Positions 23,615 through 59,907 of a DNA stretch of 64,000 nucleotides are shown one piece after another. This DNA is from Chitinophagaceae bacterium (GTDB lineage Bacteria > Bacteroidota > Bacteroidia > Chitinophagales > Chitinophagaceae): positions 293,961 through 357,960 of the forward strand of contig CBDFGC010000006.1 of NCBI GenBank assembly GCA_965246935.1, read 5' to 3'. Positions within the stretch are counted from its first letter, which is position 1, and every line of letters begins with the position of its first letter. Made by a program: the position numbers and the translations under genes. The notes under the pieces are model-generated. The model did not search any database and was not told the origin of the DNA. It was given only the letters and a program-made list of their open reading frames with translations.

Positions 23615-23820
23615 AGAAGAAGTTATGAGAGATAAGTTATGAGAGATGAATTGTAAACGAATAGTGATTGTTGCAAATTATGTGTAGAAGAAGAGATGAG
23701 AGATGAGTTATGAGAGATAAGTTATAAAGGGACAGCGATTATTGCAAATTATCCGCAAAGAATACAATTCAGCAACCCATGTCTTATCTCTCATATCTTA
23801 TCTCTCATAACTCATCTCTT
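23615..23820. repeat. Intergenic nested repeat cluster between divergent GH3 and tig genes (gttatgagagatRa tandem copies and their inverted copies; 30-bp ttgcaaattat direct repeat)
   Basis: Forward copies 23622-23649 and 23693-23725, inverted copies 23782-23817 (cttatctctcata...), direct repeat 23661-23694 / 23732-23762. Confidence 0.7.
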
Positions 23821-23947
23821 TTAATACGGATAAGAATCATATTTGCCCAAAGCCTCCCGGCTACTTACTTTTGCCGCCCGTTTTTATAAAAAGAAAATCA
23901 TACTGTGCAGGATCATTTATACTGCGTTATTAAAGTAAAAATCATTT

Positions 23948-35912: not shown

Positions 35913-35920
35913 TGTATTAT

Positions 35921-36023
35921 GTGCCGTAGGTACAACCTGTTTGTAGAAAATCAATTGCCATCCAACGTATTGTGCCACGTAGTGGCTACCTGTTAAATCC
36001 TGTGTACACGCTACAACTAACCC
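35921..36023. repeat. REP-like palindromic elements (variant gccgtaggtacaacctgtttgtag + canonical gccacgtagtggctacctgtt)
   Basis: Core palindrome GCCACGTAGTGGC; same family as arrays flanking the RAYT gene. Confidence 0.7.
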
Positions 36024-36062
36024 GTTGAAAAAATACAAACCGCTTTTATAAAAAACGAAAAC

Positions 36063-36476
36063 ATGTTTGACGAAACCAACAAATACAAAACAAACGACCA
36101 TTTCTTTTACATGCCGGGCAGCAGCTTGCCGGAAGTAAGCAAAGCGGTTCCTGCACTACCCGGTGTGTATTATATTATCCGGCTTGCCCGTGGCCATGTA
36201 GATCTTGTTTTTATTGGTAAATCCGGCGCAGGTGCCCAGCTAGGCAATTTAAAAGAAACAATTAGCCGGGGCCTTATCAGCGGCATATCAACCAAAGCCT
36301 CCCAAAGCTTCATACATCGGAAAATGATTGCCGAAAAAATAGATGGGCTTGACATTTACTGGTTTGTAACCATAGATGGCAAAAACAACGATTTACCCGA
36401 ATATGCCGAAGCATTATTAAAACAACGGGTGTACAATACGTATGGCAGGCTACCGCCGTGGAATGCAGAAGTGTAG
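36063..36476 (+). CDS. Hypothetical protein with possible GIY-YIG-like motif
   Basis: PGVYYIIR...LVFIGKSGAG loosely fits GIY-(x10)-YIG spacing; weak. Confidence 0.35.
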   Translation: MFDETNKYKTNDHFFYMPGSSLPEVSKAVPALPGVYYIIRLARGHVDLVFIGKSGAGAQLGNLKETISRGLISGISTKASQSFIHRKMIAEKIDGLDIYWFVTIDGKNNDLPEYAEALLKQRVYNTYGRLPPWNAEV

Positions 36477-36656
36477 ACATGCTATCCTATCTGTCGTTCG
36501 TTCCTAACCGTTTGTAAACAAATGATTACCATCCCCATTCTACAAGCAGGTTGTACCTACGGCACAAAAAACCCATGCACCCATAAAATCTATACAATCT
36601 GCCTCAGTGTAACACTCTGTTTTCAATAAAATAACATCTATCACTCAACACCATTT

Positions 36657-36850
36657 GCCCCGGCGGCTATCTATTTGTAGCATCAGCCGCAGTAATCTCC
36701 TTACGTAATCTGCCACGCAGTGGCTACCTGTTTGTAGCAGAAAACAATGTGATGAATCCACATCATCTGCCACGTAGTGGCTACCTGTTTGTAGCATCAG
36801 CCGTATTAATCTTCTTACGTAATCTGCCACGTAGTGGCTACCTGTTTGTA
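36657..36850 (+). repeat. REP array (4 units, + orientation) immediately upstream of RAYT gene
   Basis: ctgccacgtagtggctacctgtttgtagca x4 with two alternating ~27-bp linkers. Confidence 0.85.
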
Positions 36851-37006
36851 AATAGGCAAATTCCCTTCAATATTTTTTTGCACCTTCGGGATTATCCGTT
36901 TGTATTAAAATGAAAAATGGAATGAGATTTATTTCCTGTCCGGAAAAGATGATATTTTCATACATCGTATGACGTTGCTACCCATTTAACCCATTAAAAA
37001 ATATCA

Positions 37007-37474
37007 ATGGCTAACACTTATACGCAACTTCACGTCCATTTTGTATTCGCTGTAAAATATAGGGCAGCAATAATCGAAGATGGCTGGCGTGAAGAATTGC
37101 ATAAATACATTACCGGTACCGTTCAAAACAATGACCACAAAATGCTGTGTATCAATTCTGTTTCCGATCACCTGCACCTGTTTATTGGTTTCGATACCAA
37201 ACAATCTATTATGGAATTAATGCGGCAGGTGAAAGGCGATAGCGCTGAGTGGGTCAATGACAAACGGTTTACCAAAAGAAAATTTCAATGGCAGGATGGA
37301 TATGGAGCTTTCAGCAATAGCCATTCGCAGATTGATGCAGTTGTAAAATACATTATCCGCCAAAAAGAACATCACCAAAAGAAAACTTTTAGAGAGGAAT
37401 ACCTGAAGATGCTGAAAGATTATGGCGTTGAATATGATGAAAAATATGTTTTTCATGATTTGTTAGATGGATGA
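37007..37474 (+). CDS. IS200/IS605-family HUH Y1 transposase, REP-associated tyrosine transposase (RAYT)-like
   Basis: HVHFVFAVKYR (first His/His region), HuH motif DHLHLFI, catalytic Tyr in VKYIIRQKEHH (cf. IS200 YIRNQ..HH); 155 aa; flanked by inverted REP arrays. Confidence 0.8.
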   Translation: MANTYTQLHVHFVFAVKYRAAIIEDGWREELHKYITGTVQNNDHKMLCINSVSDHLHLFIGFDTKQSIMELMRQVKGDSAEWVNDKRFTKRKFQWQDGYGAFSNSHSQIDAVVKYIIRQKEHHQKKTFREEYLKMLKDYGVEYDEKYVFHDLLDG

Positions 37475-37500
37475 TGATCAACGAAAAACCATGCGCAAAT

Positions 37501-38150
37501 GCTACAAACAGGTAGCCACTACGTGGCAGATTACCTAAGAAGATCAATACGGCTGATGCTACAAACAGGTAGCCCCGCCGGGGCATAATGGTATGGATTC
37601 ATCACATTGTTTTCTGCTACAAACAGATAGCCACTACATGGCAGATTACGTAAGAAGATTAATACGGCTGATGCTACAAACAGGTAGCCACTACGTGGCA
37701 TAATGGTGTGGATTCATCACATTGTTTTCTGCTACAAACAGATAGCCACTACATGGCATAATGGTGTGGATTCATCACATTGTTTTCTGCTACAAACAGG
37801 TAGCCACTACGTGGCAGATTACCTAAGAAGATCAATACGGCTGATGCTACAAACAGATAGCCACTACGTGGCATAATGGTATGGATTCATCACATTGTTT
37901 TCTGCTACAAACAGGTAGCCCCGCCGGGGCAGATTACGGAAGAAGATTAATACGGCTGATGCTACAAACAGGTAGCCACTACGTGGCAGATGATGTAGAT
38001 TCATCACATTTTTTTTGCTACAAACAGGTAGCCCCGCCGGGGCAGATTACGTAAGAAGATCAATGCAGATGATGCTACCACAAACAGGTAGCCACTACAT
38101 GGCAGATGATGGAAGACGATCAATGCAGGTGATGCCTACCTGTTTGTAAC
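37501..38150 (-). repeat. REP tandem array (~11-12 units, 57-58-bp period, minus orientation) downstream of RAYT; CRISPR-like in appearance
   Basis: gctacaaacaggtagccactacgtggcag repeated with two alternating linker types (attacctaagaagatcaatacggctgat / ataatggtatggattcatcacattgttttct); variants with ccccgccgggg core. Confidence 0.85.
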
Positions 38151-38270
38151 AACTAAATAAGGTAATTAATATCCCAGGCATTTGTATATTTACCTATAAG
38201 CTGTTTCGTTTTTTAACCTGTTCAATGTCAAATAGCGATAAAGTAAGATCGTATTAGCCAAATGTGCTGT

Positions 38271-38340
38271 AAGCACTACCTGTTTGTAGAAAATGACAGC
38301 AATTAAATTGTTTTATGCCACGTAGTGGCTACCTGTTTAC
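38271..38340. repeat. REP half-site plus full REP copy
   Basis: cactacctgtttgtag ... gccacgtagtggctacctgttta. Confidence 0.6.
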
Positions 38341-38724: not shown

Positions 38725-41700
38725 ATGCCCTACGAATACTCCGAAGACAAACTGGTTGAGCAAACTGCTATGGATTTGTTCTTCCACCGGCTGGGCTGGG
38801 ATAGAAATTATGCTTTCAATAAAGAAACCTTTGGCGAAGGCAGTTCACTGGGCCGGCATAGCAAATCGGAGGTGGTACTGAAGCCCGTTTTTATGGAACG
38901 GCTACAGGCTTTCAATCCCGGCCTGCCGCAAAAAGCTTACGACGAAGCCTGGGCAAAACTGACAGAAGAAAGCGCCGTAAAATCAGGGGATGAAATCAAT
39001 TTTGAAAAATACCAGTTACTCAGAGACGGCATTCCAGTTGACTTCATTAACCAAAAAGGGGAACCTGTAAAAAATAAAATACTGCGGGTGTTCGATTTTG
39101 AGCAGCCCGACAACAACAAGTTTGTAGCCGTTCAGCAACTATGGATACAAGGGCGGAGCAACCGGGAGCGGCGGCCTGATATTATTGGTTTTGTGAATGG
39201 GATTCCCCTGCTGTTTATTGAACTGAAAGCCGCCCATCGCAAACTGGAAAATGCCTACAACGAAAATTTTTCCGATTATAAAGATGTAATTCCATCGCTT
39301 TTTTATTACAACGCATTTGTGATCCTGAGCAATGGCATCGAAAGCCGCATTGGCAGCGTTACCGGCAGGTACCAGCACTTCCACGAATGGAAACGTATTA
39401 CCGAGGAAGACAACGGCATTGTAGCGTTGGACCGCATCATTGTAGGCGTTTGCGAAAAGCACCGCTTTTTAGACCTGTTCGAAAATTTTATCCTGTTCGA
39501 TACTTCGCTGGGGAAAGTAATGAAACTCATTGCCCGCAACCACCAGTTTATCGGTGTCAATAAAGCCATCGAAAATATCCGGCAAAAAAAGGATATGTAT
39601 GCACATGGCAGCATCAGCCGGGAGGAAAAGCAGCGCCTGGGTGTATTCTGGCACACGCAGGGCAGCGGCAAGAGTTACTCCATGGTTTTCTTTTGCCAGA
39701 AAATTCACCGCACATTTAAGGGCAGCCATACCTTTTTTAATTGTTACCGACCGCAACGAACTGGATACGCAGATATATGGTACATTCAGCGGTGTTGGTG
39801 CCGTGCCGCAGATAAAAGCCGGTGCCAAGGAATCACTAAAAGCGGGCAGCGGCAAGCATTTAAAAGAGTTACTCAGTTCGGAGCATCGCTACCTGTTTAC
39901 CCTCATTCATAAGTTCAACTTTGCAGAAGAGATTACGAGGCGGGATAATATCATTGTTATTTCCGACGAAGCCCACCGCACCCAGGGCGGCAGCCTGGCC
40001 ATGAATCTGCGAAACGCTTTGCCCAATGCTTCCTTCATCGGCTTTACAGGTACGCCATTGTTTAAAGACGACGAATTAACGAGACGCATTTTCGGGGATT
40101 ACGTAAGCCGGTACGATTTCAAACGCAGTGTGGATGATGGTGCTACCGTACCGCTGTATTACGAAAACAGGGGCGAATATTTAGGATTAAAGAATCCGGC
40201 TATCAATCAACAGATACGGGCCATCATTGATGCTGAAACAGAAGACCTGGATAGTGACCAGCGCAGCAGCATCGAAAAATTGTTTGCCAGAGAATACCCT
40301 ATTCTTACCTCCCGAAAGCGACTTGATACTATTGCCAAAGATGTGGTATGGCATTTTTGCAACCGGGGGTATAAAGGCAAAGCCATGTTTGTGGCGCTGG
40401 ATAAACTAACAGCCGTTAAAATGTACGACGGGATTATCCAACACTGGAATAATTACATAGCCCAAACAGAAAAAGAAATAGCCAAAGGCAAATATGGCGA
40501 CCAGGAACTACTGGCAAAAAGCCGGGAACTGGTATGGATAAAAGCAACGGAAATATGTGTGGTAGTAAGCAGCGAGCAAAATGAAATACAGAAGTTCCGC
40601 AAATGGGATCTGGACATTGAGCCACACCGGGAAAAGATGAACACCCAAGATTTGGAAACCCGGTTTAAAGATGAAGCTGATCCCTTCCGGCTGGTAATTG
40701 TTTGTGCCATGTGGATCACCGGTTTTGATGTGCCTACGCTTTCTACCTTATACCTTGATAAGCCGCTGAAATCCCACACGCTGATGCAGGCCATTGCAAG
40801 GGCCAACCGCATCAGCGAAGGCAAAAATAACGGGCTGATTGTGGACTATATTGAAACCTATACTGCCCTGCTGGATGCACTGGCCATTTACGGTTCCAAC
40901 GGGGAGGACGGTGATGGTACAACGCCTGAACTACCGGTAAAGCCGAAGGAAGAACTGATCCGGCAACTGGAAGAAGCGATTACGGCAACAGAACATTTTT
41001 TACAGGATGAAGTAAGTTTCAATCTAACGGAACTGGTAAATGCCACTGCACTGCAAAAGCTGGCTGCACTGGAAAAAGGCATCAATGCCATATATACCAA
41101 CGACGAAACCAAACGTAAGTTTCAAATATTGGGAAGAGCAGTTTTTAAGAAATACAAAGCCCTGCAGCCGGATAAAGTGCTAAACCAATACGCTCCCTAA
41201 GAAGAATGCAATCGATGTAATCTACACCGCAATTGAAGGCAATATCGAGAGTGCTGATGTATCGGAGATCATGAAAAAGATTCAGACAGTTGTGGATGAA
41301 TCTATTGAAACGATGGCATCCGAGCAACCATCACAGGATGAGGGCAAAATCATTGACCTGAGCGGATTGAATTTTGAGTTGCTTGAAAAGTACTTCTCAA
41401 AGCTGCAACACAAAAACATAGCCGTTCAGTCGCTGAAGGATATGGTGGAAAAAAGATTGAAAAAGATGCTTGAACGCAACCCACTGACTATTGATTATTA
41501 CAAGCGTTACCAGGAAATTATTGATGCCTATAATCTTGGTAAAGATGAAGCGGTGATTAAGGAAACTTTCCGCAAACTGATAGAACTGATAAATGATTAT
41601 TCAGCCGAAGAAGCAGATACAAAAAGAGAAGGTCTGACGGATGAGCAAAAAGCGATATTCGATATTTTACGGCATGGCAAAGAACTGGCAGAAAAAGAAA

Positions 41701-41951
41701 AGAATGCCATCAAAGAAATTGCTATCGATTTGTTGGCAGCGTTGAAAAAAGAGAAACTAAAAGTGGAGCAATGGTCTGATAAATCGGCTACAGCGGCGGC
41801 CGTTTTTAAAACAGTAAACGACACCTTGTTTGAAGCATTGCCCTATCCTACTTACCATACTAATGATATTGACCTGAAAACAAACCTGGTGTACAACCAT
41901 CTGAAAAAGCAATACTATGGTGGCGGGCAAAGTATTTATGGCTCGTATTGA
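38725..41951 (+). pseudogene. hsdR: Type I restriction enzyme R subunit HsdR, disrupted by two single-base homopolymer frameshifts (near 39733-39738 and 41195-41197)
   Basis: HsdR_N nuclease domain (IIGFVNGIPLLFIELK), helicase motif I GSGKSYSMVFF, motif Ia-II FLIVTDRNELD / VISDEAHRTQ in +1 frame, C-terminal DUF3387-like KKNAIDVIY...VVDESIE in third frame; three ORFs 38725-39912, 39530-41200, 41271-41951 jointly ~1075 aa. Confidence 0.8.
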
Positions 41952-42296: not shown

Positions 42297-42397
42297 AAAA
42301 ATCTGTTTGCAACCACGCTTTATTCTCATCACCGCACTACAAGTAAGCGCCGGACTCTGTCCGGTGCTGGCAGGTTACTTATTTTCCATCCTGACGA

Positions 42398-42667
42398 ATG
42401 CTCAAATTAAGTAACGTGTGGACACAGGACAGAGTCCTGCGCCTATTAAGTGAAGAGACAGTACCCGAAAACTTTACCATCATCATTCCGGATGATGACC
42501 GGAAAGGCTGGCGGAAATTAGTACAAGACGCAGCGGTTAGAAAGGAACATATCATTTTAGAAAGCCCCTGGAACAGTGAAACTAGTACAGAGATAATTTA
42601 TTCCCGTAAACGGGAAGGTTATAACTTAATCATGTACCAGCTATATTTAAACAGCCCGGATGAGTAA
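42398..42667 (+). CDS. Hypothetical protein
   Basis: 89-aa ORF. Confidence 0.3.
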   Translation: MLKLSNVWTQDRVLRLLSEETVPENFTIIIPDDDRKGWRKLVQDAAVRKEHIILESPWNSETSTEIIYSRKREGYNLIMYQLYLNSPDE

Positions 42668-42816
42668 TGAAAAAGAGTTTTACAACGGAATGACATTATT
42701 GAAAGGCAATTAGATAAAGACATGGTAAAAAATAATTTCAATATCAATTTATTCGACGACAGTTGCTCCAAACCTCCCTTTAGGGCAATGTCCTTAATTT
42801 AAGAATTGTAGTAGCT

Positions 42817-43408
42817 ATGCGCCGTAGGTGCAACCTGTTTGTAGCAAACAGACATCATTGACGTTGGTGGCTGCCACGTAGTGGCTACCTGATCAGAGAA
42901 GGGGGTAGCCACTACGTGGCAATGATTCCCTTTTTCGTTTTGTTTTCTACAAACAGAAAGCCCCGATGGGGCTTATCTTAATGACATTGGCTTAAAGGGG
43001 GCTAACGGTTCACCTTCACATTTGATGCCTACTCCAGGATTTACGCATTTGTCTATTGTTTTGGTGGCACAAATCAAGTTCCCCCTTTAGAGTCTGTCCC
43101 GGACCCCAGCCGGTTGGTTAGGGGCAACCAACCCCGGATAAAAACATCCTGTAACTGAAGAAGTTAGACAACTTTACTTAGTAAAGTGGTCAAAATAACT
43201 TGTACAATAGAAGCGTGATATTACCCCAGCCTTAGCAAACAAAGAGGCAAAGGGAATCATTGCCACGTAGTGGCTACCCCTTCTCTGATCAGGTAGCCAC
43301 TACGTGGCATGCACCAACATCAATGATTTCTGTCTTCTACAAACAGGTTGCACCTACGGCGCATAACTGATACATTAATCCTTATCTTAATGACATTGCC
43401 CTAAAGGG
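42817..43408. repeat. Composite REP-containing inverted-repeat structure: ~120-bp arms (42817-42960 vs 43243-43364) each containing a REP inverted pair, flanking a ~280-bp centre with further hairpins; flanked by ~40-bp direct repeats at 42711-42750 and 43570-43609
   Basis: Reverse complement of 42817-42960 matches 43245-43364 almost base-for-base; cttatcttaatgacattgSc.taaagggg direct copies at 42971-43000 and 43381-43408; module ccccctttagagtctgtcccggacccc shared with MITE at 13106. Confidence 0.7.
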
Positions 43409-43531
43409 GAACTCGTTTTTACCTGAAAAATTAGTGGCAACTATGAGTATTTTGAAGTTCCTATGACAGTTTGAAAGTGTCCAAAAGCCCCCTTTAGGAG
43501 GGTTTGGGGGCAACCAGGTCAGATTGATGAA

Positions 43532-43843
43532 ATGTTCAGGTTATTTCGACAGCTTTACTTAGATAAAGACATGGTAAAAAATAATATTAATTTCAATTTC
43601 AGAAACATGTTTCAACATTTCTATTATTTTGATTTTGCTTACTTCATCAACAATTCAACAGACGAAAAAGGATTGAAAGTTGCATTTGCCAAAGGCACAC
43701 TCATTTATCTGAAAAGGAATGATGATCAGTTCTTACATGCATTTAAAGACATCGCTTTTAGTCGTGGATACATGAATATAGTAGCCGAACAAATCATAAG
43801 TGCAAATCAAGATTCGAGCACCCATTATTCAACTGGCCGATAA
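43532..43843 (+). CDS. Hypothetical protein; N-terminal coding region duplicated at 42722-42800
   Basis: 103-aa ORF; MVKNNINFNF.. start duplicated upstream as truncated copy. Confidence 0.3.
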   Translation: MFRLFRQLYLDKDMVKNNINFNFRNMFQHFYYFDFAYFINNSTDEKGLKVAFAKGTLIYLKRNDDQFLHAFKDIAFSRGYMNIVAEQIISANQDSSTHYSTGR

Positions 43844-46152: not shown

Positions 46153-47895
46153 GTGAAGGCCATGCTCACTTTAAAAAATTTTGACCAGCAGATTACCGGT
46201 GCTATCCTGCAGCGGGGAAGGCAATACTTCAATGATGGAAGCGTAACCTATATTGAAGAAACAGGCGATGATACCTGGACGGCGGAGGTAGAAGGCTCCG
46301 ACACGTACGAGGTAGAAGTAACGCTGAAAAAAGACAATGAAATAAAGGATTACGATTGCAGTTGCCCTTACGACGGTGGTATTTGCAAACACCTGATAGC
46401 CGTGTTTTTTACCCTGCGGGAAAAGCTGGCAGCCGAAGGCAACAGGCAAAAAGAAAAAGCCGCTAAAAAAGATGTTTTCGGGCGCCTGCTGGCTGCTGTT
46501 ACAGCAGAGGAATACCGGCAGTTTGTGCAACGATATGCTGCCAAAAACCGGCAGTTCAAAACGGATTTTGAGCTTTACTTTTCCGATAAGGACAACCAGA
46601 TAGACGTAGAGGCTAAATATAAAAGCCTGGTCGATAAACTGGTTCGCATGTATACGGATCATGGCTATGTAGGTTACGGGGCGGCCTCCGGATTGGCAAG
46701 GGAGGTGAATAAACTACTTGACACCGGCACTGACCATATTTCCAAAAACAAATTCAGGGATGCATTTGCACTGGCAAAAACTGTAATGCGGCAGCTTATT
46801 GATATCATCGGGGATGCCGACGATTCGAATGGGGAAATCGGCGATGCCATAGATAGTTCCATTGATTTGCTGGATGAGATTGCCGATGCGGGCAACGCTA
46901 CCTCCGACATGAAAGGGCAGGTTTTTGCTTTTATAGAAAGAGAACTCGCCGACAAGAGTTATAATGATTACGGGGATTTTGGAGACCGTTTACTCGATGT
47001 ATTTCAGGCATTGGCTATTACATTACAAAAGGAAGAGGTCTATCTCCGTTTTATGGACCGGGGCACAGGTGGTGATGATTACCTCAGGGAGCCGTACCAA
47101 AAAAGAAAAATTGCTTTTTTACGGAAGACCGGTAAAAAGGCGGAAGCCGAAAAACTGGTACAACAAAATATGGACATTGTAGAAATCCGGGAGGCAGAAG
47201 TAGAGAAAGCTATCAGAAAAAAGGATTTTACCGCTGCAAAAAAACTGATTGGTGAAGGCATCCGCATCGCAGAAAAAAAGAAGCACCCGGGTACGGTGGA
47301 TGGCTGGAAAAAGGAACTGCTTCGGATAGCTGAACTACAAAAAGATACACCGGCCATCCGTGAATATGCAAGGTACTTTGCTTTAGATAAGGGGTTTTCT
47401 CCAGAACACTTTCGCAAATGGAAAAAGACATTTCCTGCTTCGGAGTGGCCAACTGTTATAGAAGATTATGTATCCGGTACTACCCGGAAAATTAAAAAGG
47501 AAAGCAGTAGTAAGAACCCGAACTGGTGGTCAGCACAATCGCTGCCGGATACGCTTGCCCCTTTGTACATTGAAGAAAAATATTGGGATCGGCTGCTGGT
47601 ACTGGTACAGCAGGAAAACAAACTCAATATAACGCTGCGGTATCATCCCTACCTGGTTCAATATTATCCTGATGAATTGCTGGCGCTTTATCTTCCGTTA
47701 CTGGAAACTTATGGGTTAAAAACAAGCACCCGGAGCGAATATGCCGACCTGGTAAGTAAGATGAAAATGGTTGTAAAGGGTATTCCAAAAGGAAAGGAAG
47801 CCGTATTGTCCTTAGCCCGGCGGCTGAGGGATCGGTTTTCCTTACAGCCCCGCCGCCCCGCCATGATAGAAGAACTGAACAAGATTTTGAAATAG
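46153..47895 (+). CDS. SWIM zinc-finger domain protein
   Basis: CSCPYDGGICKHLIAVFF = CxCx(n)CxH SWIM motif; 580 aa. Confidence 0.6.
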   Translation: MKAMLTLKNFDQQITGAILQRGRQYFNDGSVTYIEETGDDTWTAEVEGSDTYEVEVTLKKDNEIKDYDCSCPYDGGICKHLIAVFFTLREKLAAEGNRQKEKAAKKDVFGRLLAAVTAEEYRQFVQRYAAKNRQFKTDFELYFSDKDNQIDVEAKYKSLVDKLVRMYTDHGYVGYGAASGLAREVNKLLDTGTDHISKNKFRDAFALAKTVMRQLIDIIGDADDSNGEIGDAIDSSIDLLDEIADAGNATSDMKGQVFAFIERELADKSYNDYGDFGDRLLDVFQALAITLQKEEVYLRFMDRGTGGDDYLREPYQKRKIAFLRKTGKKAEAEKLVQQNMDIVEIREAEVEKAIRKKDFTAAKKLIGEGIRIAEKKKHPGTVDGWKKELLRIAELQKDTPAIREYARYFALDKGFSPEHFRKWKKTFPASEWPTVIEDYVSGTTRKIKKESSSKNPNWWSAQSLPDTLAPLYIEEKYWDRLLVLVQQENKLNITLRYHPYLVQYYPDELLALYLPLLETYGLKTSTRSEYADLVSKMKMVVKGIPKGKEAVLSLARRLRDRFSLQPRRPAMIEELNKILK

Positions 47896-47906
47896 CATTA
47901 AGGTAA

Positions 47907-48142
47907 GTGAAGTTGTCAAAATAAGTTCAGCAAACAGCCTTTATGCTCCATCGGAGCATTTGGTGAGTAGAAGATGATTAGGCGGCTCGTATTAGCGTTC
48001 CATCGGAACGCATGGTGCGGATGGTAGCACCAAACGTTCCGATGGAACGTTGAAAGCTTTTAGGTTGAATTGCTGCTACCCACCAAATCTTCCTACGGGA
48101 GAAACATCACTTGAATTGCTGAACTTATTTTGACAACTTCAC
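47907..48142. mobile_element. MITE-like 236-bp element with perfect 27-bp terminal inverted repeats and internal palindromes
   Basis: gtgaagttgtcaaaataagttcagcaa (47907-47933) / ttgctgaacttattttgacaacttcac (48116-48142); inner palindromes gcgttccatcggaacgc and acgttccgatggaacgt; TIR tip resembles ISAzo13-like IS TIR (aaataagttSaRcaaa). Confidence 0.6.
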
Positions 48143-48144
48143 TA

Positions 48145-48190
48145 AAGGACGGCATCGCTTCAGGCGATGCCGTCCTTACAATTATTTTTT
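48145..48190. terminator. Bidirectional rho-independent terminator between convergent SWIM gene and gltD
   Basis: aaggacggcatcgc(ttcag)gcgatgccgtcctt followed by attatttttt. Confidence 0.75.
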
Positions 48191-48195
48191 AATAC

Positions 48196-49686
48196 TTACA
48201 TTCCCACCCAAACTCTTTCTGCCAGGTTATCATCCTTACTTTCCAGCAGTGATGGCCGGTTCATCAGAAACTCATCCACTTTACGGGCACATTCGCGGCC
48301 CTCGCTGATAGCCCATACCACCAGGCTCTGCCCACGGCGCATATCGCCTGCGGCAAACACTTTGGGTATAGAAGTCTGGTAGCTTTTTTCTGCTGCTTTT
48401 ACATTGCCACGGACATCTTTTTCAATACCCAGGCTGTTAATCATCCCCTCATGTTGCGGACGCAAAAAGCCCATGGCCAGCAGCACTAAATCACAGGGTA
48501 TTTCCCGTTCACTGCCGGCCACTTCTATAAAGTGTGCTGGTTTTCCATCCTGGCCGCTCACCCATTCTACATCGTTTAACCGTAATGCCTTTAATTCACC
48601 CTGCCCGTTGCCTATAAATTCTTTGGTATTCATGGCCCAATGGCGGTAAGCCCCTTCTTCGTGGCTGCTGGTGGTTTTCAGCAGCATCGGGTATAACGGC
48701 CAGGGCATTACATCTGTACGGCTATCCGGTGGTTTGCTTAATAGTTCCAGTTGCGTAACACTTAGGGCGCCCTGCCGGTTGCTGGTACCTACACAATCAC
48801 TGCCGGTATCGCCGCCGCCAATAACTACCACATGCTTGCCGGTAGCAGAAATCCGTTCCGCAATTGCATCCGCTACGCCTCCCACTTCCTTGTTTTGTTG
48901 TTTTAAAAAATCCATGGCGAAATGAATTCCCTTTAATGTCCTGCCGGGTTTTTCCAGATCACGGGGAATGGTACTTCCCCCTGCCAGTACAATGGAATGA
49001 TAGTCCCGCAACAGGTCGTTCATCTTAATGTCCACACCGATGTTGGTATTGCAAATAAAACGGATGCCGCTTTCCTCCATTAGTTTCAGGCGGCGGTCGA
49101 TCACCCATTTTTCCAGTTTAAAATCGGGGATGCCGTAGCGTAGCAAACCACCCGGTTTATCGTCCCGTTCGTACACCGTTACCTGGTGGCCGGCACTGTT
49201 TAGTTGTGCTGCTGCTGCCAGGCCCGCCGGGCCACTGCCAATTACAGCTACTTTTTTACCCGTACGTACGGCAGGTTGCTTCGCCTGTACATAGCCTTCT
49301 TTAAAAGCAATTTCGATAATATGCTTTTCAATTTCCTCAATGGTTACCGGAGGCTGGTTAATGCCCAGTACACAGGCACTTTCGCAGGGGGCCGGACAAA
49401 TGCGCCCCGTAAATTCCGGGAAATTGTTCGTAGCCGAAAGAATGCGGTAAGCCTCCAGCCAGTCCTGCTGATAGACAGCATCATTAAACTCCGGAATTAC
49501 ATTACCCAGCGGACAGCCGCTATGGCAAAAAGGCACCCCGCAATCCATACAGCGGGCACTTTGTTTATTCAGTTCATCATCCGAAAACAGGAACTGAAAT
49601 TCCTTATAATCGTGCAGCCGTTCCTGCACGGGCCGTTTGGCGGGCATATGCCGTTCAAATTCTAAAAAGCCGGTTGGTTTTGCCAT
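48196..49686 (-). CDS. gltD: Glutamate synthase small-subunit-like NADPH-dependent oxidoreductase (GltD family), no adjacent gltB
   Basis: Fe-S cysteine cluster CMDCGVPFCHSGCPLGN, FAD/NAD Rossmann motifs VAVIGSGPAGLAAA and VVVIGGGDTGSDC; 496 aa. Confidence 0.8.
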   Translation of the reverse strand: MAKPTGFLEFERHMPAKRPVQERLHDYKEFQFLFSDDELNKQSARCMDCGVPFCHSGCPLGNVIPEFNDAVYQQDWLEAYRILSATNNFPEFTGRICPAPCESACVLGINQPPVTIEEIEKHIIEIAFKEGYVQAKQPAVRTGKKVAVIGSGPAGLAAAAQLNSAGHQVTVYERDDKPGGLLRYGIPDFKLEKWVIDRRLKLMEESGIRFICNTNIGVDIKMNDLLRDYHSIVLAGGSTIPRDLEKPGRTLKGIHFAMDFLKQQNKEVGGVADAIAERISATGKHVVVIGGGDTGSDCVGTSNRQGALSVTQLELLSKPPDSRTDVMPWPLYPMLLKTTSSHEEGAYRHWAMNTKEFIGNGQGELKALRLNDVEWVSGQDGKPAHFIEVAGSEREIPCDLVLLAMGFLRPQHEGMINSLGIEKDVRGNVKAAEKSYQTSIPKVFAAGDMRRGQSLVVWAISEGRECARKVDEFLMNRPSLLESKDDNLAERVWVGM

Positions 49687-50751: not shown

Positions 50752-51253
50752 ATAAGCAGACGCTGGTTGGTATTATAAAAGAATGAAGATAACCAATCTA
50801 TTTATAGAATGGATACGAACGGGATGATAACAGGAACGTCAGAATGATTGAACATTGCCGGTATAGTTGTTAGAGCAAGCAAGGCCCATCCATCGTATAC
50901 ATGCAAAAACGCTTTTGTCATGAACGTAACAACAGTGCTTGATACCAAATTCAAACAGGCAATCGCTGCCATACCTTCATGCGTTAATCAAAAGTATCCA
51001 AAGTAAGGGTGCAGGCAGCGCTGTTGGATAAGTTGCGGGTTGCCCTTTACGTTTCTCCCGTTCTGCAATGAGCTTTGGTTTTAGTTTTGCCGGGCGGTAA
51101 TAATTTGTTGGCCGCTTAGCCCTTCTTCATCCGGCTTAATGATCTGAAAGAAGCGGAAGCCTTAGGCTCCCCGGTCTTTGAAGCACATAGCTTATACTTT
51201 TATCCTGGCTAAGTAACTTACAATGACACGCTATAAATTATCTTAGTAAATGA

Positions 51254-52537
51254 AAATAAATAAGTTGAACAAAAAGCAGTATAAATTTGGGATAAAAACC
51301 AGAGATGATAAGCCCCTATAATCATCAAATAGAAGAGCTAATGCGTCTTCATTATAATCGGCTGTCAGAAAGGGAAAAGCGTTGGTATGCGGCTGTTGAA
51401 GCATCTAAATTAGGCTGGGGCGGTACGACTTACATCAGCCACCTGTTACAACTCAGCCGTACTACAGTCACGGTTGCCAAAAAGGAAATGCAGGCTGGCT
51501 TACTACAACCCCAAGTGCCAACAGCAGGCAGGCAGCGAAAAACAGGCGGCGGGCGAAAAAAAAAGTACAGAAAAGCTGGCTGATGCCACCTTACAGTTGA
51601 TCATTTTACTTCAAAGCCTCAAAGCCGGTAGCCCCACCGATGCAACTGTTTACTGGATAAGCCTCAGGCCCCGGCAAGTAGCACAACTCTTTGAAGCACA
51701 GCATCAGTTTAAAATAAGCCATAGTTTTGTAAAGCGGGTACTCAAAGAACAGGGGTATGGCTATCGAAAACAGTCCAAACAATTAGCCACTGGCAGCTAC
51801 AGCCGTCGCAATGAGCAGTTTGAAATCATTTGTGCGATGGTATTGGTAATGAGCCTGCAAAGCCCTGTGCTCAGCATGGATTGCAAGAAAAAAGAGCGGT
51901 TAGGTAATTTATACAGAGGGGGCAAATGCTACAGCACCAAAGCTATGAAAGTATATGACCACGATTATGAGCATTTATCAGAAGGCAAAGTCATTCCTCA
52001 TGGAATTTATGATATGCAGGCCAATAAAGGCTATATCTCTATCGGGGGCAGCAGCGAAACAGCAGATTTTGTAATAGACAACCTGCTATGGTGGTGGTGG
52101 GAACATGGTATTCATCGCTACCCGGATGCAAAGAACATCCTGTTGTTCTGCGATGCAGGAGGTGCCAATAGCTATCGCCATCATGCCTTTAAGTACCAGC
52201 TACAGCTCTTTGCCAAGGAAACAGGCTTATCTGTTATTGTATGTCACTATCCGCCTTACTGTTCTAAATGGAACCCGATAGAACATCGCCTGTTCTGTCA
52301 GGTGCATAAAGCGATGGAAGGTGTTGTTTTTACCGATTATCAAACTGTTCAACAATGTATCGGGCAGACCGCTACTCAAACAGGCTTAACAGTGGCGGTA
52401 AGGCTCAACCTTCAGCAATACACAACAGGCAGGAAGATAGATAAAGAACTTATTGATCAAAACCGAATAACCTTTCATCCCCTCATTCCGGAACTCAACT
52501 ATAGAATCTATCCATGATTTGTTCAACTTATTTATTT
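51254..52537 (+). mobile_element. ISAzo13-family insertion sequence (~1.28 kb) with 20-bp perfect terminal inverted repeats
   Basis: TIR aaataaataagttgaacaaa at 51254-51273 and its reverse complement at 52518-52537; encodes DDE transposase with DCKKKERLGN motif. Confidence 0.75.
51305..52517 (+). CDS. ISAzo13-family DDE transposase, two overlapping frames joined by frameshift in A9 tract (51556-51564)
   Basis: N-terminal HTH ORF ends ...TGGGRKKKYRKAG*; downstream frame continues ...EKKSTEKLADATLQLI; LSMDCKKKERLGNLYRGG, DAGGANS, CHYPPYCSKWNPIEHRLF typical of family. Confidence 0.7.
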
Positions 52538-54592
52538 CGCTTTACTTATCAGCATAACCATTCCTTTTTTGAAAATTTTCTTACCGGTATAATCTTTCCC
52601 CTGTACCATGTATAGGTATGCTCCTGTCAATAATTCGCCGGAACTGATAGCGCCATTCCAACCCTTATTTACTTCCGAAGTGGTAAATACAGCCTGCCCA
52701 TAGCGGTTGTAAACAGTAAAATAATCCAGCTTTGTTATCCCTATTAAAATGGGTTTCAGCACATCGTTTTTTCCATCGCCGTTTGGCGTAAAGCCTGTAG
52801 GTACTAAAATAGCAGGACCACTTTTGAATACAGTTATTTTTACATCATCCGTGGCAGCGCAACCTTCTTTTGTGGTAGCGGTTAGTGTAAAAGCGACGAT
52901 GTCCGGAGCAGCCACGTTAAAGGTAGCTACCGGGTTTTGAATGGTACCATTATTTAAAAAAGAAGTGGGTTGCCAGCTATATTGTAAGGTAGCGGTATTG
53001 CCCGGGCTGCTGCCATTTAATTGCAAAGGCTGCCCGATAATGGCAAACGTGTCGTTGCCGGCAAAGGTGATAAACTTTTGTATCACTTTTATTGTAACGG
53101 TATCGCTTACTGTTTTAGGACAATAAAATGTATCTCTTACAGATAAGATATAACTGGTGGTATTTACCGGCGTGGCAACCGGGTTTAAAATTGTGTTGTT
53201 TGATAAAGCGGTGACCGGGCTCCAGTTGAAATAAGAAGCGTTAATTACCCCATTCAGCCTAATGCTGTTACCAACACAAATAGCGGTATCGGCACTGGCT
53301 TTTACTGTAGGATAAGGGGAGGCATGCACAATTATTGTAGCACTGTCTGTGCACAGGCCCAATGTTCCGGTTACAGAATACACCGTGTTTTGCATTACAG
53401 GCAATGCTTTCGGATTTTTTACATAATAATTACTTAGTGTATTACCGCCGCCGCTTTCTTTCCATACATAGTTCACCGCATCACTAATGGGATTCAGGAT
53501 AGTGTTGTCGGTCATGCACACGGCTGTATCTGTTACCAGTTTTACAGAAATGCTATTGAAGATTTTAATGGTTGCCGTGGCAGAATCTATAAAGCCGTTA
53601 TCACCGGTGATGTTGAGCTTTAGCGTATAGGTGCCAACACCGGGATAGGTGTACGTTGGCATGGCAAGATGAGAGGTATCGGCATTCGTAGTGAGATCAC
53701 CAAAATCCCAGCGGTATGTCGTAATGGCCGGGCAGGTTGGTTGCTCCGCCTTAAAGTTGAACGTAAAGATTTTGCAATTGCTGTAGAGCGGTTTTAACAG
53801 CGGTTTTACGAAAGGGCAACTGGTTACTTTAATCTGGGATTCTTTTTTGGCCGTGTTTAGCAGAACACCGTTACGCCATTCGCTGGCATATACGGCAATG
53901 GTATATCCGCCGGGCTTATCAGGCGCTGTGCCGGTAAGCGTACCGGTAACAGGGTCAATGCTGAAAACCCCGGTACCCAGGGGGTCGGTACCGCTATACT
54001 GCGCCCAGTATTGCACAGGGATATTCGGAGGAGAAGTACCCGGATCTCTTACGCCGTCAACGGCATTACCAATGCTGTAAGAAATAGAATCACCATCCGG
54101 GTCGGTAGCAGTAAATGGAAAAGAAAAGGACGTATTCCGGCAAACGGTCATCGTATCATTAATACTGAATTGCAGGCTTTTATTTCTATGGTAATCAATG
54201 CCATTCATGAATCCGGGAATAGTCGTTGTAAATAATATCCCCGAATTTGCCGGATCGTAGATACTCACAATACTGGTATCTCTTGTAAAAAGGGATGCGG
54301 CAATTAAATAACCATGCGGATTATCAGGCAAGGTGATAGATCCGCCCACGGCAATCATTTTATACGCATTATTTAAAGCTGTAGCATTAGTACAAGGCGG
54401 AAACCGGTTGGAGGTGAAAAAATTATAAATTGTATCTACTGTGGTAGCACTACGTACAGGCGTCCCGTTTACAGCATCGTAGGCGTAAAAAGTAATTGAG
54501 CGGTAGTTGCCATTGGTAACGGCTTTCCATATCGTTACATAATAAATATTCGTGTGGTCATCGTTATTTGGATACAAAAACTCACATTCCAT
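52532..54592 (-). CDS. Secreted protein with T9SS type B (CHU_C / gliding-motility-associated) C-terminal sorting domain
   Basis: C-terminus FTPNGDGKNDVLKP...FTVYNRYGQAVFTTSE...GWNGAISSGELLTGAYLYMV is the classical CHU_C domain; 686 aa. Confidence 0.75.
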   Translation of the reverse strand: MECEFLYPNNDDHTNIYYVTIWKAVTNGNYRSITFYAYDAVNGTPVRSATTVDTIYNFFTSNRFPPCTNATALNNAYKMIAVGGSITLPDNPHGYLIAASLFTRDTSIVSIYDPANSGILFTTTIPGFMNGIDYHRNKSLQFSINDTMTVCRNTSFSFPFTATDPDGDSISYSIGNAVDGVRDPGTSPPNIPVQYWAQYSGTDPLGTGVFSIDPVTGTLTGTAPDKPGGYTIAVYASEWRNGVLLNTAKKESQIKVTSCPFVKPLLKPLYSNCKIFTFNFKAEQPTCPAITTYRWDFGDLTTNADTSHLAMPTYTYPGVGTYTLKLNITGDNGFIDSATATIKIFNSISVKLVTDTAVCMTDNTILNPISDAVNYVWKESGGGNTLSNYYVKNPKALPVMQNTVYSVTGTLGLCTDSATIIVHASPYPTVKASADTAICVGNSIRLNGVINASYFNWSPVTALSNNTILNPVATPVNTTSYILSVRDTFYCPKTVSDTVTIKVIQKFITFAGNDTFAIIGQPLQLNGSSPGNTATLQYSWQPTSFLNNGTIQNPVATFNVAAPDIVAFTLTATTKEGCAATDDVKITVFKSGPAILVPTGFTPNGDGKNDVLKPILIGITKLDYFTVYNRYGQAVFTTSEVNKGWNGAISSGELLTGAYLYMVQGKDYTGKKIFKKGMVMLISKAK

Positions 54593-59564: not shown

Positions 59565-59671
59565 GGTTGTGCGTAATTTTATAGACACCTGATGCTGTTT
59601 AGTATTTTAACACTTGTTGGAAAATAGATAAAAAATATTAAAGTATCGATTTTGTGTGCTGCAGGCACATT

Positions 59672-59907
59672 CTGTTTGTAGGCATATGGGTGATTAGGTG
59701 TTTTATGCCACGTAGTGGCTATCTGTTTAGCCACCGTGTACCTGACTTGACAGCGTTTGTTTAAAAGCTAAACAACTTCCTGATGTATTATTTCAAACAA
59801 CACTTGTTCCTTTACTTTAAAGTGATCAAACAGGTAGCCACTACGTGGCATGATGGCGTTTTTAAAGCCTTCATTGTTACAAACAGCTTGTACCTACAAC
59901 ACAATAG
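59672..59907. repeat. REP cluster: inverted REP pair (59706-59729 +, 59827-59850 -) plus degenerate copies
   Basis: gccacgtagtggctatctgtttag ... caaacaggtagccactacgtggca ... acaaacagcttgtacctacaac. Confidence 0.7.

Follow-up and report, generated by a model that had tools for sequence, protein, structure and literature searches.

Within the 64-kb stretch of Chitinophagaceae DNA analysed here (the window), a gene for a SWIM zinc-finger protein (PF04434; 46162–47895) and a convergently oriented gene similar to that for the glutamate synthase small subunit (48196–49686) enclose a 236-bp palindromic element and, after it, a terminator-like hairpin (Table 1). The element begins 11 nt after the TAG stop codon of the SWIM gene (47893–47895), and the hairpin is pre-existing host sequence that adjoins the insertion site, not part of the element. 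An insertion sequence (IS) of the ISAzo13 family lies 3.1 kb from the element, and a second non-coding element with ends of the same family type, abutted by a solitary degenerate end, lies 4.3 kb upstream. The original prediction, made from the letters of the window, had described a MITE-like element with 27-bp perfect terminal inverted repeats (TIRs) and internal palindromes, placed shortly after a stop codon and just before a terminator, and this description stands.

An inverted-repeat search of the window returned two 28-nt arms, 47906–47933 and 48116–48143, that are 100% complementary. Since the outermost A/T pair of the arms (47906/48143) is part of the TAA direct repeat on either flank, the element proper runs from 47907 to 48142 (GTGAAG...CTTCAC), with TAA as the outer bases on both sides; its 28-bp TIRs are thus 27/28 identical. 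Exactly two copies of the TIR 27-mer, GTGAAGTTGTCAAAATAAGTTCAGCAA, are present in the window, one per strand, against none expected from 100 shuffles. Like MITEs, which are under about 500 bp and lack a transposase or plausible ORF, the 236-bp element has no PF07592 transposase and no coding capacity: overlapping ORFs of 20–27 amino acids are present, and none is longer than 27. It is flanked by a TAA/TAA target-site duplication (47904–47906 and 48143–48145) of the length made by its putative partner ISs. Taken as a whole, the element is an imperfect palindrome: its TIRs are identical, but no more than 63 of 103 aligned columns agree between the two interior halves; the predicted internal palindromes, gcgttccatcggaacgc (47995–48011) and acgttccgatggaacgt (48034–48050), lie in the two inner hairpin units.

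Table 1 Features of the element and of the related elements in the window
Feature	Position	Strand	Remarks
Left target-site duplication, TAA	47904–47906		Same trinucleotide after the right end
Left TIR, GTGAAGTTGTCAAAATAAGTTCAGCAAA	47907–47934	+	Starts with G; AAATAA box at positions 13–18
Outer hairpin unit 1, TGCTCC-ATC-GGAGCA then TTTGGTGAGTAG	47944–47971	+	Mirrors unit 4; repeat search
Inner hairpin unit 2, GCGTTCC-ATC-GGAACGC then ATGGTGC	47995–48018	+	Pairs with unit 3 (23-nt arms, 91% complementary)
Inner hairpin unit 3, GCACCAA then ACGTTCC-GAT-GGAACGT	48027–48050	+	Mirrors unit 2
Outer hairpin unit 4, CTGCTACCCACCAAAT then CTTCC-TAC-GGGAG	48073–48101	+	Mirror image of unit 1
Right TIR, reverse complement GTGAAGTTGTCAAAATAAGTTCAGCAAT	48115–48142	-	Repeat search
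Right target-site duplication, TAA	48143–48145		Same trinucleotide as left flank
Terminator-like hairpin	48145–48177	+	15 pairs, 9 of them G-C; T-run follows on + strand
ISAzo13-family IS, 1,300 bp, related autonomous element	51246–52545	+	PF07592, E = 9e-89; 28-bp TIRs; TTA duplications
Second non-coding ISAzo13-ended element, 378 bp	43181–43558	+	TIRs GTAAAGTGGTCAAAATAACTTGTACAAT / GTAAAGCTGTCGAAATAACCTGAACATT, 22/28; TTA/TTA
Solo degenerate ISAzo13-type end, GTAAAGTTGTC-TAACTT...	43150–43177	-	Abuts the 378-bp element via shared TTA at 43178–43180

The predicted fold of the element has a free energy of −119 kcal/mol (z = −13.7), and that of the opposite strand about −116 kcal/mol (z = −14.4). 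This high stability on both strands and the position between convergent genes, beside a terminator, would suit a structured non-coding RNA, which the original prediction had offered as an alternative, or a cis-acting 3′-untranslated-region or terminator element belonging to either neighbour, the SWIM-domain gene or the glutamate-synthase-like one. However, Rfam 15 gave no match at gathering thresholds anywhere in the window, and a permissive Rfam search of 47700–48350 returned generic hairpins, the best of them mir-455 at 20.5 bits against a gathering threshold of 70. A perfect stem of 27–28 bp free of wobble pairs and bulges, equally stable on both strands and flanked by a 3-bp repeat, points instead to an inverted repeat at the DNA level, and a separate canonical terminator is already present at the site. 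Nothing resembling the element was found after the SWIM gene in the nearest relatives (SWIM proteins 56–57% identical, from Terrimonas pollutisoli and one JGI contig); their 3′ neighbours differ from those in the window, so these loci offer no homologous intergenic region for an empty-site comparison, in which the 3′ side of the SWIM gene without the element would be expected to read ...AAGGTAAAGGACGG... We consider an RNA or cis-regulatory origin of the element very improbable. Other structured or mobile sequences were also set aside: an integron attC site, as the element has no GTTRRRY core; a retron non-coding RNA, as no reverse transcriptase gene lies nearby; and IS200/IS605-type ends, as these lack TIRs.

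The IS that lies 3.1 kb away is longer than had been predicted (51254–52537, with TIRs of 20 bp). It spans 1,300 bp, its 28-bp TIRs, GTAAATGAAAATAAATAAGTTGAACAAA and GTAAAGCGAAATAAATAAGTTGAACAAA, are 25/28 identical, and it is flanked by TTA at 51243–51245 and 52546–52548. Its ORF 51474–52517 matches PF07592 (DDE_Tnp_ISAZ013; E = 9e-89). The IS leaves little room outside its gene, with only 59 bp between the left tip and the ATG and a right TIR that abuts the stop codon.

We compared the ends of nine ISAzo13-family ISs, aligned by anchoring at the duplication boundary. The set comprised the window IS, four close relatives from metagenomes (P0179, P0192, P0123 and P0246; 64–76% transposase identity) and four distant plasmid members (from Calothrix, Methylomonas, Nostoc (ISNsp4) and Skermanella; 34–38% identity), the last group found by searching plasmids with the repaired transposase (tblastn). 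Hundreds of transposase relatives at 70–79% identity came from a protein search, and DNA was fetched for four types; the DNA of a fifth type, P0236, was added later as a further check and stands outside the nine. The P0246 transposase is 99% identical to that of P0134. All nine ISs begin with G (GG or GT), and the element with GT; ISfinder lists ‘Ga/g’ as the terminus of the ISAzo13 family. AATAA occupies positions 14–18 from the tip in every IS. The longer box AAATAA at positions 13–18, which is derived here as a family feature from these nine ISs, is present in eight, the Skermanella ends differing at position 13, and one P0123 end reads GAATAA instead. Matching TTA or TAA duplications flank eight of the nine; the lone P0123 copy is bordered by TTA at one end and by TAA at the opposite end. 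All three features, that is, the terminal G, the AAATAA box at 13–18 and the T-W-A duplication (W = A or T), occur in the element in the same register. Having no coding capacity, the element is not itself an IS of the ISAzo13 family but has the ends of one.

In the window IS, a run of nine A residues (51556–51564) splits the transposase. The P0179- and P0192-type transposases are split by a run of equal length located at the same codons (GGGRKKK; L009 3008–3016; L019 314–322), and among the matches listed most of 120 homologues cover only 76–80% of the transposase query. The P0121 and P0123 transposases are full-length forms, in frame, and loss of one A from the message would give back the complete protein. 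The pattern is suggestive of slippage during transcription, or of programmed frameshifting, as a conserved trait of this ISAzo13 clade.

The element TIR is closest to IS ends from other samples. It matches the right end of the P0192 type (GTAAAGTTGTCAAAATAAGTTGATCAAA; L019/L020) at 25/28 positions in the same register and that of the P0236 type at 24/28, followed by the left ends of the P0192 and P0246 types (22/28 each; the P0246 right end scores 18/28), the P0179 ends (19/28) and the P0123 ends (18–20/28), whereas the only IS in the host window scores 18–19/28. As a control for chance, the element TIR was scored against all other 28-mers of the window (about 128,000). Every non-self 28-mer scoring at least 19/28 is, in register, a true end of the window IS or of the 378-bp element (43181, score 21; 43558, score 19; 52545, score 19); the other end of the IS, at 51246, scores 18, as do three chance sites. 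The similarity of the TIR to ISAzo13 ends is thus not due to chance. Short-word blastn revealed no internal similarity beyond the TIR with any IS examined, so that descent from an IS is indicated by the ends alone, and none of the ISs examined carries exactly the TIR of the element.

These comparisons bear on two further accounts of the palindrome. One is that it arose by chance or by local inverted duplication with no tie to transposition, to which its single known copy would be suited. Shuffled sequences yielded no arm matches, however, and the ends agree with ISAzo13 ends at up to 25/28 positions, in register and together with the T-W-A duplication of the family; a non-transpositional origin is extremely unlikely. 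The other, put forward in the original prediction, is that the element is an internal-deletion derivative of the IS at 51246–52545 and is mobilized by it. The two lie only 3.1 kb apart and share the 28-bp TIR length, the terminal GT and a 3-bp T-W-A duplication. The predicted resemblance of the TIR tips is real (AAATAAGTTcAgCAAA against AAATAAGTTgAaCAAA), and over the inner TIR segment AAATAAGTTsArCAAA the match is 14/16, which could permit cross-mobilization by the window IS. Yet over the whole TIR the match falls to 18–19/28, with only 4–5 of the outer 12 positions shared, while other clade ends are closer, at 25/28 (P0192-type right) and 22/28 (P0246/P0134-type left). Moreover, blastn with word sizes of 7–9 found only 9-nt matches inside the TIR box, and the IS, with the 59 bp of its left side and its stop-abutting right TIR, has no subterminal sequence like the interior of the element. 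On this comparison the element is not a deletion derivative of its neighbour, only its ends being IS-like, and we give the derivation very little weight.

The 378-bp element at 43181–43558 has ISAzo13-type ends but an interior that differs from that of the 236-bp element and contains REP (repetitive extragenic palindrome) units detected by a covariance model. Non-autonomous elements with ISAzo13-type ends are therefore not unique in this genome. The spacing between the 378-bp element and the solo end is exactly 3 bp (TTA), and the junction looks like an end-to-end junction or an insertion into the duplicated target of a neighbour. Both lie in a nest of repeats: the segment 42872–43177 resembles 43261–43558 in direct orientation, with repeat spacings of 388–409 bp, and a 41-nt direct repeat (42710–42750 and 43559–43599; 93% identical) brackets the nest and includes the start of a small ORF. 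A 42-nt inverted repeat at 42344–42445 (79% complementary, with an 18-nt loop) overlaps the start of the small ORF 42398–42667. At 23678–23833 the window also contains a 50-nt inverted repeat, 72% complementary and purine-rich, with motifs resembling GAGATGAG/TTATGAGAGAT and 56 nt between its arms.

The window also encodes a genuine REPtron (35914–38292), 10 kb upstream of the element. Its ORF for the REP-associated tyrosine transposase (RAYT; 37007–37474) specifies an IS200-like Y1 enzyme (PF01797, E = 8e-27), and REP units stand in inverted arrays on either side of it, about three on the left and about eleven on the right. Each unit consists of (T/C)(T/G)CTAC-AAACAGGTA (9 nt) and then a 5-3-5 hairpin, the stems of which covary (GCCAC/GTGGC, GCCCC/GGGGC, GCACC/GGCGC and GTGCT/AGCAC). 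The REPtron sits between hsdS and hsdR of a type I restriction–modification system; HsdR is spread over three successive ORFs at 38725–41951 (HSDR_N and the start of SWI2/SNF2; SWI2/SNF2 and domain 3; and the C-terminal domain), and frameshifts seem to have disrupted the hsdR gene. R1, a covariance model made from 18 REP units, identifies further REP clusters at 59651–59907, 42814–42977 and 43257–43367 (E of 1e-7 to 1e-11); over the window as a whole it detects about 32 REP copies (E < 0.02), members of the family scoring 16–53 bits.

The outer hairpin units of the 236-bp element share the layout of these REP units, with TTCTAC or TGCTAC, 9 nt and a 5-3-5 hairpin whose loop is GAT or TAC. Given also the RAYT gene between its inverted REP arrays and the bona fide REP units inside the other ISAzo13-ended element, the 236-bp element might be taken as REP/REPIN-like, its four hairpin units being handled by a RAYT as at 37007–37474 and its outer inverted repeat being incidental. 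The covariance model does not bear this out: the best unit of the element scores only 7.8 bits against R1 (E = 2.4), which is at noise level. The 9-nt spacer is invariant in the REP family (AAACAG..) but reads CACCAAA in the element, the units of which (TCCATCGGA/TTTGGTG) have no other occurrence in the window. In addition, a REP origin leaves the 28-bp IS-type termini and the TAA duplication unexplained. After the covariance-model test the REP hypothesis for the interior was dropped as unsupported, and we judge it highly unlikely that the element as a whole is of REP type.

Searches for further copies of the element covered the window, genomes, metagenomes, viruses and plasmids. The 64-kb window contains no second copy. 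Exact scans with a TIR 22-mer in 185,579 species-representative genomes and with a TIR 20-mer in JGI metagenomes gave nothing relevant; such scans need exact 20–22-mers and so miss copies with one mismatch there. The sole return of both was one coding sequence of an Aenigmarchaeota metagenome-assembled genome, which has no partner arm. This gene contains 27 nt identical to the right TIR plus 2 nt (GAAGTTGTCAAAATAAGTTCAGCAATT; L001 4589–4615 and L002 1435–1461), an identity that is longer than chance would predict but that we treat as a coincidence in AT-rich coding DNA. The outer-half TIR 18-mer AAGTTGTCAAAATAAGTT had eight chance matches in IMG/VR, in AT-rich phage DNA, and blastn of the element against PLSDB plasmids gave chance matches only. 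The P0134 transposase cluster, 76% identical to the transposase of the window, is present on at least 6 large NCBI/ENA contigs. If these contigs come from the source genome, as they may, that genome would contain a partner IS in multiple copies; going by the P0246 copy (99% identical), the ends of P0134-type ISs match the element at 22/28 (left) and 18/28 (right).

Taken together, the 236-bp structure with its TAA duplication, the register-locked agreement of its ends with those of nine ISs and the presence nearby of a related IS and a second ISAzo13-ended element make it probable that the element is an ISAzo13-type MITE, that is, a non-coding, non-autonomous transposon with 28-bp ends of the kind associated with PF07592 transposases and with one known copy. 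We infer that a transposase supplied in trans by an ISAzo13-family IS of the same genome binds both TIRs; the likely core of the binding site is the conserved AAATAA box (positions 13–18). The transposase would then cut at the terminal G and integrate the element at T-W-A, which is duplicated in the process. This copy would have landed in TAA 9 nt after the SWIM stop codon, immediately 5′ of the terminator hairpin of that gene, and in SWIM transcripts the element now probably forms a very stable hairpin near the 3′ end, just before the terminator. The interior is an inverted duplication of an unrelated segment of about 90 bp, each arm holding two small hairpin units. Recent activity is suggested by the contrast between the near-perfect TIRs and the diverged interior. 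Both the partner IS and mobilization in trans are likewise inferred.

The co-occurrence of ISAzo13-type termini and REP-like hairpin doublets raises the further idea of a lineage of chimeric MITEs in this genome, on which two unrelated transposase classes could act, the DDE enzyme of ISAzo13 at the termini and a HUH-type RAYT at the internal hairpins. We think such a lineage unlikely. Alternatively, ISAzo13-type MITEs could be assembled from REP doublets that serve as their preferred filler or landing pad. In a weaker form of the proposal, the element could be the first documented, recently active ISAzo13-family MITE in Bacteroidota.

In annotation, the element should be labelled as mobile DNA and not as an RNA gene or regulatory site, and the boundaries of the neighbouring IS should be corrected to 51246–52545. 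The ISAzo13 family is poorly characterized, and our comparison describes its ends as a terminal G, AATAA at positions 14–18 and a 3-bp T-W-A duplication (the last in eight of the nine); a further outcome is that a Bacteroidota genome is shown to contain non-autonomous derivatives of the family. With a predicted hairpin of −119 kcal/mol inserted before the terminator of a gene, the stability of the mRNA or its termination could be altered. The element is nevertheless ordinary mobile DNA that would not surprise a mobile-element specialist, and not a new RNA gene or regulatory device.

Among known systems, the closest are the ISAzo13-family ISs of the Bacteroidota clade (the window IS and the P0192, P0179, P0246/P0134 and P0123 types), with which the element shares 28-bp repeats beginning with G, the AAATAA box and TAA or TTA duplications. 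It differs from them in lacking a transposase gene, in its length (236 bp against about 1,300 bp) and in its unrelated interior; furthermore, both of its ends resemble one type of IS end, the P0192-type right end, whereas the left and right ends of the ISs differ. REP/REPIN sequences with RAYTs (REPtrons; PMC3733652) resemble the element in that its 5-3-5 hairpins form inverted doublets and its outer hairpins lie 9 nt from a CTAC/GTAG tetranucleotide, but REPs lack the 28-bp IS-type termini that the element has. Several MITEs have been described in bacteria, including Nezha in Nostocales, Correia/NEMIS in Neisseria, RUP in pneumococcus and MITEAba12 (reviewed in PMC3184786 and PMC10969869); in the literature searched we found no MITE described as having ISAzo13-type ends. 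The IS to which Nezha has been linked, ISNpu3, could not be assigned to ISAzo13, and the ISAzo13-like IS that turned up in Nostoc punctiforme carries the annotation ISNpu10; a link between Nezha and the element was discarded. REPs, for their part, are not known to make 3-bp duplications. Known MITE families are defined by many copies and by filled as against empty sites, whereas the element is represented by one known copy. With these families it shares its small size, its lack of coding capacity, its IS-like TIRs and the short direct repeat at its insertion site, as well as a very stable predicted hairpin and an intergenic position near the 3′ end of a gene.
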